Source: Promethearchaeota archaeon (GTDB lineage Archaea > Asgardarchaeota > Lokiarchaeia > Sigyniarchaeales > SOKP01). From it: a stretch of 32,425 bases of DNA. This document shows positions 20,082 through 24,846 of the stretch, one piece after another; within the stretch, counting starts at the first letter, position 1, and every line of letters begins with the position of its first letter. A program made the translations under genes and the position numbers. The notes under the pieces were generated by a model, which worked only from the letters and a program-made list of their open reading frames with translations, had not been told where the DNA came from and did not search any database. The stretch lies in contig SDNY01000033.1 of NCBI GenBank assembly GCA_004524535.1, positions 1-32,425 on the forward strand, given 5' to 3'.

Positions 20082-20924
20082 TTAAGGTAAAATTTGGGAT
20101 TTCAATGATATTTTTTCAATTAGATTAACAATTATTCCTAAAAGGATTGTCTCATAATGTTTAAACGATTTTCTTGCTTTTTCTAAGGTAAGAAATCTTA
20201 AATGATTATTATTTTCTAAAGGAACAATCTTTAGAAATCTTTTTAAATTCTTATTTTTCATAATCAAAATCGATTTTTTGCTGAAAATTACGCAAATGGA
20301 TGATTCTAAATTAGTTTGGTTTAATTTATCATAAATACTCGCAATATTGATGTTATTAATTTTCGGATTAATTAAAATCATTCCAAAATTTTTAGTATCA
20401 GATAATATGGAGTTAAAAAAAATTTCAGATTCTAAATAATTTATTAAAATATAATTTGAATTCAATATTGACTTGTTTTGTTTAAAAAGATTTAAAAATG
20501 TAGAGATAATTGATCTAATCTCTTCTTGGATTGAATTTTCTAAACTATTATATTTCTGATATGCCTTAATTTTAAGATTTAAAATAATTACATTAAATCC
20601 ATAACTACTTAAGCCCTCAGTTAAAGTATATAATAATTTCTTCTTTTTGTTTGTTCTAATAATAATAATTATAGGTTTTGATGCTTCAATACCTTTAAAC
20701 GATATATTTCTAATAAAACTCCAATTTCTAACAGTAATATGTTTACTTTTAAGATTAACATCTAATTTATTAGGAGTAAAGATCTCTAATGACTCGTTTG
20801 AAAGAGAGGATCTCCATCTAGATCTTTCTTTAAAGATTTTAACACATATTAAAGCTAATAGTAATATAATAATTATAATTGAGTCTATGAATATCCAGTC
20901 TAGATGAAAAATATCAGTAGTCAT
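20082..20924 (-). CDS. Membrane-anchored protein with degenerate alpha/beta-hydrolase-like pattern
   Basis: N-terminal TM helix; KPIIIII..LTEGLSSYGFNVIILNL..GMILINP pattern; no GxSxG motif. Confidence 0.55.
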   Translation of the reverse strand: MTTDIFHLDWIFIDSIIIIILLLALICVKIFKERSRWRSSLSNESLEIFTPNKLDVNLKSKHITVRNWSFIRNISFKGIEASKPIIIIIRTNKKKKLLYTLTEGLSSYGFNVIILNLKIKAYQKYNSLENSIQEEIRSIISTFLNLFKQNKSILNSNYILINYLESEIFFNSILSDTKNFGMILINPKINNINIASIYDKLNQTNLESSICVIFSKKSILIMKNKNLKRFLKIVPLENNNHLRFLTLEKARKSFKHYETILLGIIVNLIEKISLKSQILP

Positions 20925-20942
20925 TATTGAAAAAAAAAATAT

Positions 20943-21260
20943 TTAATTATTTACTACATCATCAATCCAGTTTAAGTAATTTTTGGAGCCTTTTTCAATC
21001 TTAAAAGCAATTATTTCTGGAGTCTCATAACTATGAATTTCTTGAATCTTTTGAATTAAAGCATCACTTTTTTCTTCTGTCGTCTTTATTAATAAAATAT
21101 ATTCATTATCTTCCTCTATTTTACCTTTCCATTCGTAAATAGATATGACATTTTGAATTATATTTACGCATGCAGCAAGTTTATTTTCAATTAGAATTTT
21201 GGCAATTTTCTTCCCATCTTCTAATTTATTAACGGTTACTATAAATATATAATACATCAT
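20943..21260 (-). CDS. cutA: Divalent-cation tolerance protein CutA
   Basis: LAACVNI, SIYEWKGKIEEDNE, LIKT, HSYETPEI, YLNW. Confidence 0.95.
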   Translation of the reverse strand: MMYYIFIVTVNKLEDGKKIAKILIENKLAACVNIIQNVISIYEWKGKIEEDNEYILLIKTTEEKSDALIQKIQEIHSYETPEIIAFKIEKGSKNYLNWIDDVVNN

Positions 21261-21489
21261 GTTGTCTCAATTTCTTATTTTTCTTTTTTAAAATAATATT
21301 TAACATAATTTCAATTTTTTTCAGCTTTAAATAATATTTAATTCAGATGACAAATTCACTATATAAAATAAAATTTGATTAGTATTATTATTTAAAAAAG
21401 AAATTAATAAATAATAATTTCAATATTAATAATAAAATTGAATTTGAAATAATTTGAAAAAATTTATTTAATTAGGAGGCTGATGAAAA

Positions 21490-22245
21490 ACGCTTCATAA
21501 TGTTTATCTTATCCACCAGTTGACCGGAATCTGTCTTTTACACCGTAAGTATGGAAGTATTGAGTTTAATCAAGACTTAGTTTCCGGATTTTTGACGGCA
21601 TTAAAAGATTTCAGTGTTGAGTTTTCTAAAGGTAGTGGAGAACTCAAAGTTATAGGTTATAGATAAGTTCTATCTATAAGTAAAGATATGCAAATCTTTT
21701 ATTTAATGCTCGTCTTTAAGGAAGGTGTTCTAATAACTGCGGCTGCGGATAAAAACGACGATAGTAAAATAACTCATAGAGCTTTAAGCGATATCATCGA
21801 TAAGTTTGTTGGATTATATGGAGATCAGATTCAAACTTGGTCTGGCGACGTTCGCATCTTTAAAGATTTCGCTGATGTGATAGATAATGTCTTGGACAAG
21901 GGCAAAGTTGCAGAAATTCAATTGAAAATTCCAATTCTTAAAATATATAAAAAGGATTTTCTCAAATCTCAAGCAAAAATAGCGAAAAAAGGATTAATGC
22001 TATCGGAGGACGATTTAAGAAAAGCAGAAGATAAAAAGCCTGAATGGACAGAGAAAAGGCTTCCAAAGCAGGTTATAACTCAAGGATTTTTGGATAAAAA
22101 GCAATATGAAATTGCACATTTAGCAGATGGCTTTCACACTATAGCAGAAATTGCCGAAGAAGCTGGTACACCACAATCAGAAGTACAATCAATTATCGAT
22201 AGTTTAGATAAACTAGGTTTATTAAAATTTATTGAAATAGCTTAG
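21490..22245 (+). CDS. Longin-like domain + C-terminal winged-helix protein; split gene join(21490..21655,21686..22245), 241 aa
   Basis: The frame of listed ORF 21688 continues upstream as (ACG)LHNVYLIHQLTGICLLHRKYGSIEFNQDLVSGFLTALKDFSVEFSKGSGELKVI, a typical longin N-terminus. It is separated from DMQIFYL by 30 nt containing TAA. AGGAGG at 21474-21479. C-terminal DGFHTIAEIAEEAG..LDKLGLL winged helix. Confidence 0.8.
21656..21685 (+). other. Candidate 30-nt bulge-helix-bulge mRNA intron
   Basis: GTTATAGATAAGTTCTATCTATAAGTAAAG. Perfect 9-bp stem (21657-65/21671-79), 3-nt bulge AGG, 4-bp helix UUAU/GUAA, 3-nt bulge AGA. In-frame TAA at 21664-21666; removal restores V-I-D-M. Confidence 0.65.
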
Positions 22246-22345
22246 AAATATGTTAAATAAATTTTTTTAAGAAATTATCCCCTAATCTCTTTTTTTAATA
22301 TACAATTAAATTTTTGAAATTTAATTAATTAATTTAATCTATAAA

Positions 22346-23818
22346 ATGAATGTAAATAAAATTGAAGAAAACATCTACGAAATTACTCCTAAGGCCTTAA
22401 TGGTTCGATTGCAGGGTAAAATTGAAAGATTTCAAATGAACGTACCTGTACGTATTTATGCTAATGAGTATATTTTAGAAAGAATAAAGCAAGATAGGAC
22501 CTTAGATCAGATAAGTAATGTCGCATGCTTACCAGGAATAAGAAAACATGCGATAGCTCTCTCAGATGCCCATCAAGGTTATGGATTTTGTATTGGTGGA
22601 GTTGCTGGGACAGATGCTGAAACAGGTATGATTTCTCCGGGAGGAGTTGGTTACGATATAAATTGCGGAGTAAGACTTATTCGAACGTCATTAGAAGAAA
22701 AAGATGTTAAAAAAATCATGCCTAATTTATTAGACTCAATTTTTAGAAATATACCTTCTGGATTAGGTTCAAAGGGTAAACTAAATATAAGTTATTCCGA
22801 TTTGGATGATGTTTTAAATAATGGACTGAATTGGGCTTTAGATAAAGGATATGCACTCGAAAATGATCTTAAACATTGTGAAGAAAATGGTTTTTTAATG
22901 GATGCCAATGCTGATATAATATCACAGAAAGCAAAACAAAGGGCAATTAAACAACTTGGTTCTTTAGGTAGTGGAAATCATTTTATTGAAATACAACGAG
23001 TTGACGAGATTTACAACGAAAATATCGCAAAAAAACTTGGTATAATTAAAAAAAACCAAATTGCAGTTATGGTTCATACGGGTAGTAGAGCTTTGGGTCA
23101 TCAAGTTTGTACTGATTCTTTGAGAAACATTGAAAAAGCAATGAAAAATTATCAGATCAGAGTTCCTGATAGAGAACTCGCTTGTGTCCCTGCCAACACT
23201 CCTGAAGCTCAAAATTATTTGAGTCAAATGGCATCTGCTGCAAACTTTGGATTTTGTAACAGACAATTGATTACTCATTGGCTAAGAGAATCGTTTCAAA
23301 ATGTATTTAAAGAAGATCTTGACGCTCTAGATTTAAATTTAATTTATGGAGTTTGCCACAATATCTTAAAAATAGAAGAACATGAAGTTAATGGTGAAAA
23401 AATGATGTTGAATATTCATCGCAAAGGGGCGACTAGAGCGTTCCCTCCAGGTCATCCAGAATTACCTCAAGATTACAAAGAGATTGGACAACCTGCATTA
23501 ATACCTGGGACTATGGGTTCGGCTTCATATTTATGCGTTGGAAAACCAAAAGCAATGGAGCTTTCTTTTGGCTCTACAGCTCACGGTTCAGGCAGAGTGA
23601 TGTCTCGATCAAAAGCTAAGAGAAGTTATTGGGGAAACCAAATAAAAGAAGAATTGAGTAAAAAGGGAATCCTTGTAAAAGCAGCTTCAATTCAAGTTAT
23701 TGCCGAAGAGGCTCCAGGTGCTTATAAAGACATAGATCAAGTCGTTAATGTAAGTCATGAACTTGATATAGTTGAAAAAGTCGTTAGGTTTGTCCCAATT
23801 GGTGTAGTAAAGGGATAA
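22346..23818 (+). CDS. rtcB: RNA-splicing ligase RtcB
   Basis: DAHQGYGFCIGG, GYDINCGVR, GSGNHF, HTGSR, CHN, HRKGATRA, IPGTMG, STAHGSGR, EEAPGAYK. Confidence 0.97.
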   Translation: MNVNKIEENIYEITPKALMVRLQGKIERFQMNVPVRIYANEYILERIKQDRTLDQISNVACLPGIRKHAIALSDAHQGYGFCIGGVAGTDAETGMISPGGVGYDINCGVRLIRTSLEEKDVKKIMPNLLDSIFRNIPSGLGSKGKLNISYSDLDDVLNNGLNWALDKGYALENDLKHCEENGFLMDANADIISQKAKQRAIKQLGSLGSGNHFIEIQRVDEIYNENIAKKLGIIKKNQIAVMVHTGSRALGHQVCTDSLRNIEKAMKNYQIRVPDRELACVPANTPEAQNYLSQMASAANFGFCNRQLITHWLRESFQNVFKEDLDALDLNLIYGVCHNILKIEEHEVNGEKMMLNIHRKGATRAFPPGHPELPQDYKEIGQPALIPGTMGSASYLCVGKPKAMELSFGSTAHGSGRVMSRSKAKRSYWGNQIKEELSKKGILVKAASIQVIAEEAPGAYKDIDQVVNVSHELDIVEKVVRFVPIGVVKG

Positions 23819-23823
23819 CACAA

Positions 23824-24255
23824 TTATATGTCAAAAACAATTTTAATTTTTACTCCTTCTGTGCTCTCCTCTATATTAATAAAAGAATATGTAATTGCCT
23901 TAACTTCGGTCCCAACCTCATGCTTATTTTTATCAAACTCTTCGCCTCTTACAATTGCCTCTAATTCGTATTCGTTATTAATTTTATTAATACTTTCAAT
24001 ATTAATTTCGTTAAATACTAATCCTTCCACGTCAAAAATAAAAAGAAATTCTGAAAGAAAATCAAATAATAAAGCTTCTTTATCTTCAGCTTTAATTTTT
24101 AGACTTTTTTCAACTGTATGGGAAATTTTCTCCAAATTAGAAGTAATAACTGTCATTAAACTCAGAGCACATTGAGAAAACGCTTCTTCTAAGGTTCTAC
24201 CCCAGCTTAGGCTTTGAATGTCTGCGGTGTGATCAAGATATCTAAATCCTTTCAA
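23824..24255 (-). CDS. Archease (RtcB activating cofactor)
   Basis: FRYLDHTADI, LEEAF, LLFDFLSE, GTEVKAITY, C-terminal VFDI. Confidence 0.95.
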   Translation of the reverse strand: MKGFRYLDHTADIQSLSWGRTLEEAFSQCALSLMTVITSNLEKISHTVEKSLKIKAEDKEALLFDFLSEFLFIFDVEGLVFNEINIESINKINNEYELEAIVRGEEFDKNKHEVGTEVKAITYSFINIEESTEGVKIKIVFDI

Positions 24256-24345
24256 CTTGATTTATTTAAAAATAGCGTTCCTTTAAACGTTTGCATTTTA
24301 ACAAATTTTCTTAGGAGTTTATAACACTAACATATTAATTTTTGT

Positions 24346-24846
24346 TTGATTAAAGTGATAGACAATATTTTTCTTTCTCAGAAAATTAGGATTAAAAAGA
24401 AATATACTAATAAAGAACTTAAGCTATACCAATATTTTCACAAGAAGACAAAATTTTATCCTGAATATGTAATAATATTAAATCAATTTATCTTTCTTTT
24501 CGTTAATAACGATATTTACTTCGAAGCCAAGGTACACTTAAATTCTATACGAAAGCAATTAGAAAAGAAAGTCGTAATGATAAGAGCAGAGAATACATTA
24601 ATAAAATTACTGTTTAGTTTTTTTCCGGATCCTTATATTCACGATATAAAAATTGAAATTAACGAAGAAAATGGGAAAAAAATTAAGATTATCACAATTT
24701 ATTTTTTATCATTTGAAGAAAGAGGTATTGCCATCGGAAGGCAGGGAGCATATATTAAGGCTGTCAATGAAATTTTTGAAAAATATATAATCTACGAGAA
24801 AAAAGATCTACCTATAACACTAAAATGTAAATTATTAAATTTATAA
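24346..24846 (+). CDS. Archaeal NusA-like KH-domain protein
   Basis: KKVVMIRAENTLIKLLFSFFP and ERGIAIGRQGAYIK (KH GxxG loop). Confidence 0.7.
   Translation: MIKVIDNIFLSQKIRIKKKYTNKELKLYQYFHKKTKFYPEYVIILNQFIFLFVNNDIYFEAKVHLNSIRKQLEKKVVMIRAENTLIKLLFSFFPDPYIHDIKIEINEENGKKIKIITIYFLSFEERGIAIGRQGAYIKAVNEIFEKYIIYEKKDLPITLKCKLLNL

Follow-up and report, generated by a model that had tools for sequence, protein, structure and literature searches.

A probable bulge-helix-bulge mini-intron in the mRNA of a winged-helix protein encoded next to rtcB in a Lokiarchaeia-type archaeon

This study concerns a short insert in a protein-coding gene of a Promethearchaeota archaeon, located on contig SDNY01000033.1 of assembly GCA_004524535.1 (this whole stretch of 32,425 nucleotides [nt] is referred to below as the window). 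The gene encodes a protein with a C-terminal winged helix and lies directly upstream of rtcB, the gene of the RNA-splicing ligase, and its coding sequence is broken by 30 nt carrying an in-frame TAA stop codon. The insert is very probably an archaeal bulge-helix-bulge (BHB) mini-intron that is removed from the mRNA by the tRNA-splicing enzymes, whereby a protein of about 240 amino acids (aa) is restored. The motif is present and conserved, its paired positions covary, its excision restores the reading frame exactly in 18 genomes, and the genes for the enzymes are present. No RNA read bridges the intron; cleavage and ligation, and splicing that is constitutive rather than regulated, are therefore what we infer from these observations.

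RESULTS

Structure of the insert

The insert and the elements of its fold are listed in Table 1. The exon sequence UUAU pairs with GUAA near the 3' end of the insert to form a 4-bp helix, H (U-A, U-A, A-U, and U-G), flanked by the 3-nt bulges AGG and AGA, each lying 3' of the helix on its own strand, which is the arrangement of the central helix of the archaeal BHB. Between the two strands of H, a hairpin, h', is formed by a perfect stem of 9 bp (21657-65/21671-79) with the loop AGUUC (21666-70). The outer exon-exon helix, h, is reduced to the single pair G21649:U21687, so the motif is not of the strict hBHBh' form and belongs to the relaxed HBh' form. An original prediction, made by a model from the letters of the window, had placed the insert, the stem, the bulges, and the stop codon at exactly these coordinates, and had itself pointed out that the outer helix is one G-U pair, which is indeed the case.

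In the published geometry of the BHB, two 3-nt bulges flank a 4-bp helix, whose 5' strand is exonic in tRNA (PMC4090602; this source and PMC2738675, PMC3241643, and PMC5829648 are cited throughout from extracts of their texts). Cleavage is predicted between bulge residues 2 and 3 (PMC2738675), in agreement with the rule that the original prediction had applied. Removal of 21656-21685 under this rule rebuilds GTT ATA GAT ATG, in which the Asp58 codon is assembled as G|AT and the protein reads ...KVIDM...; the intron-less orthologues (e.g., L007) read the same, as had been anticipated. Since the borders of the insert are fixed independently by the alignment of orthologues, and since even a looser motif (4/4 pairs in H and at least 8/9 stem pairs) occurs in this genome at a rate of only 1.35e-4 per fixed position and length (21,740 raw hits), the insert is beyond what chance would give.

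The splicing that we propose would run as follows. In the pre-mRNA, exonic UUAU would pair with intronic GUAA to give the central helix of 4 bp with a 3-nt bulge 3' on each strand, and the remaining intron would form the 9-bp hairpin. The heteromeric (alpha-beta)2 form of the endonuclease EndA would cleave each bulge behind its second nucleotide, and RtcB together with archease would join the exons, dropping the in-frame TAA and rebuilding the codon of the invariant Asp58. With the exon-exon helix down to one pair, recognition would have to depend on H, the bulges, and the hairpin of the intron.

TABLE 1 Features of the window that bear on the candidate intron, and similar inserts elsewhere in the genome
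Feature	Position	Strand	Remarks
ATG at the start position of the closest homologues	21483..21485	+	One base out of frame; A-run 21486-21490
Exon 1 (...LHNVYLIHQLTGICLL...GELKVI plus first Asp base)	21487..21655	+	Open from behind TGA 21484-86; 91-93% identity to uninterrupted orthologues
5' strand of helix H (UUAU, exon)	21650..21653	+	Paired in 100% of cells over 18 sequences
5' bulge AGG	21654..21656	+	Predicted cut 21655/21656; each of the 18 aligned sequences has AGG or AGA here
Candidate intron, 30 nt	21656..21685	+	In-frame TAA 21664-66
Intron hairpin h'	21657..21679	+	Both partners changed in 6/9 stem pairs (18 genomes)
3' strand of helix H (GUAA, intron)	21680..21683	+	GUAA, AUAA, or GUAG in relatives, pairing every time
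3' bulge AGA	21684..21686	+	Predicted cut 21685/21686
Exon 2 (last two Asp bases, MQIFYL... to TAG 22243-45)	21686..22245	+	C-terminal winged helix-turn-helix
rtcB (RNA-splicing ligase), uninterrupted here	22346..23818	+	Pfam RtcB, E = 2.6e-168
Archease (RtcB cofactor), convergent	23824..24255	-	Pfam Archease, E = 5.2e-43
cutA, upstream neighbor	20943..21260	-	Pfam CutA1, E = 4.9e-37; at 21/25 loci
Genome inserts (loci L053-L059)	C17:344, C129:9466, C98:11152, C16:3511, C32:3634, C8:3092, C100:12039	-, -, -, +, +, -, -	Contig and position

Inserts at the same site in other genomes

With the TAA read as X, the read-through protein retrieved 406 homologues from a large protein collection, the best 120 of which were 226-245 aa long; their sources bore the names Lokiarchaeota, Promethearchaeota, and similar. 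All nine close homologues retrieved (9/9) were uninterrupted and read KVIDM. A six-frame search was then made in 134 genomes of the same family and found the gene in 126 of them, 19 copies (about 15%) being interrupted. The interrupted copies were distributed over genera g11 (10/50), g2 (6/42), g6 (1/5), and g13 (1/1) besides the window's own, while none was found in eight other genera (0/21). When the interrupted copies were aligned to an intron-less copy, the insert turned out to lie at the exact site of the window in 18 of the 19; these 18 inserts, distributed over five genera, were 30 nt long in 16 genomes and 29 nt in two (G020 and G142). Excision at the sites defined by the bulges gave a complete frame of 239 codons (counted from the His of LHNVY, with a second intron also removed where present) in 18/18 copies, including those with the frame-shifting 29-nt inserts. 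The expectation attached to the original prediction, namely, that intron-less copies would read KVIDM and that intron-bearing ones would vary in sequence while keeping the geometry, was thus borne out.

The presence of an insert of diverged sequence at one and the same site in 18 genomes that were assembled separately makes an assembly or sequencing artefact scarcely conceivable, even though the probable source run did not yield the window's own contig.

A maximum-likelihood tree was built from 41 copies, comprising all 19 interrupted ones and 22 intron-less ones (a sample biased toward interrupted copies). Intron-bearing copies were interspersed with intron-less ones: the window stood beside G002 and G005, and G134 and G135 stood beside G009. 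This mixed placement implies repeated precise loss and/or transfer of the intron, as described for cbf5 in the extract of PMC2738675. The intron of the window differs from that of L006 (G013, from another genus) at about 5 of 30 positions, as counted by eye, and the dS of the exons is 2.8, that is, saturated; either a sequence constraint beyond pairing or recent movement between lineages would account for such similarity.

Covariation and further introns in the same gene

When the BHB structure was imposed on the alignment of the 18 sequences, 93.2% of the cells were paired, compared with 86.0 +/- 1.0% in shuffled alignments, none of which (0/500) was as high. Both partners had changed in 7 pairs (22 cells), values reached by 1/500 and 0/500 shuffles, respectively, and sliding the partners by 1-3 columns left 32-57% of the cells paired, with 0-2 pairs changed on both sides. 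Helix H was paired throughout with U-A/U-G alternations, and the bulges remained 3 nt long. The outer pair was G-C in 13 sequences, A-U in 3, G-U in 1, and unpaired in 1, the first base of the Val/Ile codon covarying with the third base of the Asp codon.

The same gene carries inserts at two further sites within its first 16 codons (read from L036, L038, and L040-L047). At site A, between codons Q12 and T14, six genomes of g11 have a second insert of 30 nt (four genomes) or 31 nt (two), built on the plan of a 4-nt exon strand, a bulge UAA or UAU, a hairpin of 23-24 nt whose loop is NNUUC, an intron strand of 4 nt, and a bulge AAC. Here, 88.9% of the cells were paired and 9 pairs had changed on both sides (0/500 shuffles), compared with 39-44% paired cells in the slid controls; the covariation includes two pairs in H (A-U/G-C/G-U and C-G/U-A alternations), and the first pair of H is A.G in 5/6 sequences. 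At site A' (G15/I16), 5-6 nt downstream of site A, four genomes of g2 carry inserts of 29, 33, 34, or 37 nt with the helices CCGG:CCUG, CAGG:CCUG, or CGGG:CCCG.

NNUUC loops and a 23-nt hairpin recur in most introns at site A and at the site of the window (site B), which may reflect a common origin or a shared constraint. A paralogue with 40% identity (G046; L050, 860-914, minus strand) has a 30-nt TAA-bearing insert at the homologous site KII|NM, with a degraded motif: 3/4 helix pairs, a hairpin of 5 bp, and four unpaired bases before the 3' helix strand.

Similar inserts in other genes of the genome

A scan of the 3.66-Mb assembly looked for sites where excision at the motif would restore a long frame, and only hits whose junctions were supported by homology were retained. 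Looser scans were dominated by noise (13,834 and then 1,119 hits); restriction to stable hairpins with a G-C pair in H left 6 hits, compared with 1 in the mirror control. The inserts retained (Table 1) are 30-32 nt long, have hairpins of 7-10 bp and the same BHB architecture, and lie inside conserved genes, where the junctions read through conserved motifs. The Pfam profile coordinates continue across most, not all, of the junctions. The genes are those for RNA polymerase A' (Rpb1 domain 1, profile positions 34-73 and then 74-153), CdhD (7-135 and then 138-227), EF-2 (GTP_EFTU, 2-35 plus 9 residues and then 49-187), ELP3 (ELP3_N and then Radical_SAM), a DeoC-type aldolase (the profile ends at the junction), and CdhC (CdhC and then ACS_CODH_B_C 25-64); cdhA is probably interrupted as well, though it has no upstream Pfam match. 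cbf5 of this genome is uninterrupted.

The CdhC frame closes 48 codons past the junction, and the C-terminal profile has 245 positions, so a further intron may follow. A hit on contig C40, with no Pfam family upstream and a thioesterase downstream, was dropped as probably representing two genes. At C162:8800 (plus strand), a stable 23-nt hairpin (dG -8.7) marks a 30-nt excision that would join frames of 90 and 72 codons, and only the mirror-image bulges of the control geometry fit it.

These inserts and the covariation bear on the possibility that no RNA splicing takes place, and that the gene of the window yields two polypeptides by a restart at ATG 21688 or is read by ribosomes that bypass the insert, as they do in gene 60 of phage T4. 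An ATG (the invariant Met59) does follow directly after the insert, and the TAA stands 21 nt upstream of it. Neither a restart nor a bypass would call for conserved base pairing of exon with intron, for bulges fixed at 3 nt, or for compensatory changes; the orthologous sequence is not obtained from any matching pair of take-off and landing codons, and in the gene for RNA polymerase A' the comparable insert leads into IELARPV, where there is no start codon. We regard translation without splicing as highly improbable. An intein and a self-splicing intron were weighed as well, and they and translational bypass were rejected on the stop codons, the 29- and 31-nt variants, and the size.

The splicing machinery

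Two genes with an EndA domain, each encoding 201 aa, are present in the genome, that of alpha at 1168-1773 of L001 and that of beta at 1219-1824 of L002. The product of the first, EndA alpha, is nearest to the Aeropyrum pernix chains 3p1z_B and 3ajv_B (E = 7.6e-37), retains the catalytic His (Ala in 3ajv), and in the alignment shows KPR where the Crenarchaea-specific loop (CSL) has Lys44; the second has Ser at the position of the catalytic His, as expected of a structural beta subunit. An alpha/beta EndA with the CSL/L1 loop, RtcB, and archease are thus all encoded. According to the extracts cited, the CSL confers broad substrate specificity on EndA (PMC3241643), Asgard archaea have an (alpha-beta)2 EndA with the L1 loop, and relaxed motifs are cut only by such broad-specificity types of the enzyme (PMC5829648). 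ARAGORN found only 22 tRNAs in the genome, 13 of them with introns, a low and intron-rich tally that fits heavily disrupted tRNA genes.

Observations that weigh against an intron

Several observations speak against the reading of the insert as a spliced intron. The motif is relaxed, with H made up entirely of A-U and G-U pairs and an outer helix of one pair, and the minimum-free-energy structure of 21630-21710 keeps the 9-bp stem and not H, being no more stable than those of shuffled sequences (z = 0.23). The genome-wide scan for the motif with an open reading frame was not enriched, giving 59 hits versus 68 in a control of mirror geometry with the same number of pairs, and the motif alone proves little in this AT-rich genome. 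The intron occurs in none of the six other genomes of the same genus (g1) that have the gene (0/6). Among the contigs assembled from two RNA and two DNA runs (of 24 runs sharing words with the stretch), none bridges 21640-21700 with the window's own sequence; those that could be placed were intron-less DNA of relatives and three short RNA-library contigs (21450-21611, 21891-22036, and 22088-22271), which are uninformative on splicing. Finally, a single base puts the ATG at 21483 out of register with the rest of the gene, so this copy could be dying or the assembly wrong.

The host gene and its product

The out-of-frame ATG looks like the ancestral start: the close homologues P0002 and P0003 begin with MKILHNVY, and the codon is preceded by AGGAGG (21474-79). 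Reading in frame, one meets no ATG, GTG, or TTG before TTG 21520, the first start codon available. In an RNA-library contig of a relative, the sequence is one base shorter at 21492, and the ATG of that relative is in frame. What seems to be a surplus base within or beside the A5 run (21486-90) may stem from an error of assembly, or it may be a genuine frameshift marking early decay or a site of +1 recoding. As to the product of 241 aa claimed in the original prediction, its restored frame stands, but its length does not, since the count began at ACG 21490 and ACG is no start codon.

One may accordingly ask whether the gene is dead or dying, the insert and the frameshift near the start being marks of a pseudogene that gives no full-length protein here. 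The start codons just described would agree with this, as would the lack of RNA support. The gene is, however, otherwise intact over 239 codons, and the dN/dS of its spliced form against the two closest relatives (intron-less and about 89-93% identical) is 0.030-0.035, with a dS of about 1.5-1.7 that is near saturation. The insert is kept in 17 other genomes, with frames that are complete after excision and for which the frameshift near the start is not an issue (the in-frame start codon in front is TTG in L006 and ATG in L023), and an error of one base in the A5 run of a metagenome assembly offers a simple alternative. We thus hold a pseudogene to be decidedly improbable.

Pfam profiles HTH_47, MarR_2, and TrmB matched residues 209-248 with E values of 1.6e-4 to 1.1e-3, below their cutoffs, and the Longin profile matched with E = 0.006 (16.8 bits, compared with a cutoff of 26.2). 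The closest intron-less homologue was modeled with AlphaFold from an alignment of 22 sequences, with a mean predicted local distance difference test (pLDDT) score of 61; the C-terminal 60 residues, modeled as a winged helix, scored 84-90, and the N-terminal domain, with the element order beta-beta-alpha-beta-beta-alpha, scored below 50. The winged helix is better supported than the longin assignment. Of the label longin/winged-helix given in the original prediction, the second half is thus retained and the first is weak: the N-terminal domain is possibly longin- or roadblock-like, and calling it longin-like would be a guess.

Linkage to rtcB and archease

The position directly upstream of rtcB and archease had also been part of the original prediction, and Pfam confirms both neighbors (Table 1). 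At 20/25 loci (the window counted), rtcB lies within 1.5 kb of the host gene, and at 3 more archease only, giving linkage at 23/25 loci. Because this linkage spans four families of the order in varying arrangements, a functional tie of the host protein to the ligase is plausible. On 20500-24500, Rfam gave only a subthreshold match to Histone3 (21949-21995), and a search of three intergenic regions for operator-like repeats found many AT-rich palindromes (e.g., 22304-13/22317-26), none shared or interpretable.

The rtcB genes of G002, G005, and G020 have a 29-nt BHB intron of their own within GGVGY|DINCG (L004, 2751-2790; L005, 3019-3058; L023, 2649-2688), of the pattern UUGG aua ... CCAA aaa/aca with a 9-bp hairpin. 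The two closest relatives of the window thus have an intron in rtcB and none in the neighboring gene, whereas the window shows the reverse. In L027 (G025), the tblastn match to RtcB breaks between residues 362 and 438, which could be due to divergence, an intein, or another interruption.

The linkage raises the question of a regulated switch. XBP1 mRNA in animals is spliced unconventionally by IRE1 and RtcB, and HAC1 mRNA in yeast with Trl1, from twin stem-loops with conserved 7-nt loops. By analogy, the intron of the window could be real but removed conditionally, coupling the winged-helix protein to the activity of RtcB and archease in a feedback loop. The proximity of the host gene to rtcB and/or archease at 23/25 loci, the introns at three sites of the gene, and the resemblance of the C terminus to a DNA-binding winged helix would suit such a switch. 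There are further likenesses to XBP1 and HAC1 in that a short mRNA intron in the gene of a DNA-binding protein would be excised by a protein endonuclease and its exons joined by a tRNA ligase. The structure, however, is a BHB enclosing one hairpin with a 5-nt loop and not a pair of hairpins with 7-nt loops; PF06479, the family of the IRE1-type RNase, was not found in the genome (99% complete) by a search that matched no control genome either; and there is no sign of condition-dependent splicing. Since, moreover, the intron is present in only 15% of the orthologues, so that the coupling is not conserved, and look-alikes reside in housekeeping genes (those for RNA polymerase A' and EF-2 and the cdh genes), a dedicated expression switch looks unlikely. 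The better reading is that the intron is one of a genome-wide population of mini-introns rather than a dedicated sensor or regulatory device. The splicing of HAC1 and XBP1 mRNAs is treated in the extract of PMC4090602.

DISCUSSION

A BHB or BHB-like intron in the cbf5 pre-mRNA was reportedly described by Watanabe in 2002 and by Yoshinari in 2006. To our knowledge, cbf5 has since 2002 been the only archaeal protein gene published as having an mRNA spliced by the tRNA machinery. In the full texts that we searched, there was no report of such introns in mRNAs of Asgard archaea, though supplementary files may list further BHB predictions, and the extract of a 2025 paper on EndA cites only three papers on cbf5 with regard to mRNA.

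The cbf5 intron occurs in the Desulfurococcales and Sulfolobales, according to the extract of Yokobori 2009 (PMC2738675). On the same authority, it resembles the intron described here in lying within a coding sequence, in its relaxed BHB cut between the second and third bulge nucleotides, in its need for a hetero-oligomeric EndA of broad specificity, and in its history of retention by some lineages and precise loss from others. The present intron differs from it in the phylum (Asgard, judged by the source names of the homologues) and in the host gene, in its uniform format (29-31 nt with a 9-bp/5-nt hairpin), and in its numbers: a gene copy can hold as many as two introns, three sites are in use, and a single genome has many host genes. 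Splicing of cbf5 has been proven with cDNA, whereas the present intron is known from genome sequence. Compared with the introns of archaeal pre-tRNAs (hBHBh' and relaxed HBh' forms), the geometry is the same (PMC4090602, extract), and so would be the enzymes, EndA and RtcB with archease; the host, by contrast, is an mRNA, and the exon-exon helix, which in tRNA is the anticodon stem, is cut to one pair.

In one Lokiarchaeia-type genome, at least seven genes show introns of this type, and in one gene family they occur at three sites, with gain or loss between close relatives. Going much further, one could imagine that tRNA-type mRNA introns of about 30 nt with fast turnover pervade the genomes of the family, that their splicing is obligatory for growth, and that the host protein is a regulator or partner of the ligase on which its own synthesis depends; we would give this picture a small chance. 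If it were true, the ligase-dependent, intron-rich winged-helix gene that accompanies rtcB and archease would stand as a prokaryotic equivalent of the loop known from XBP1 and HAC1, and, with essential mRNAs (those of RNA polymerase A', EF-2, and rtcB) among the hosts of introns, cytoplasmic splicing by cutting and ligation would be obligatory.

Should RNA data confirm the splicing proposed here, gene callers would be found to break or misannotate genes systematically in these genomes, and EndA and RtcB would be essential for the expression of mRNAs, beyond their role with tRNA. The closest archaeal relatives of eukaryotes would then constitute a natural system in which the spread of protein-dependent introns could be studied.

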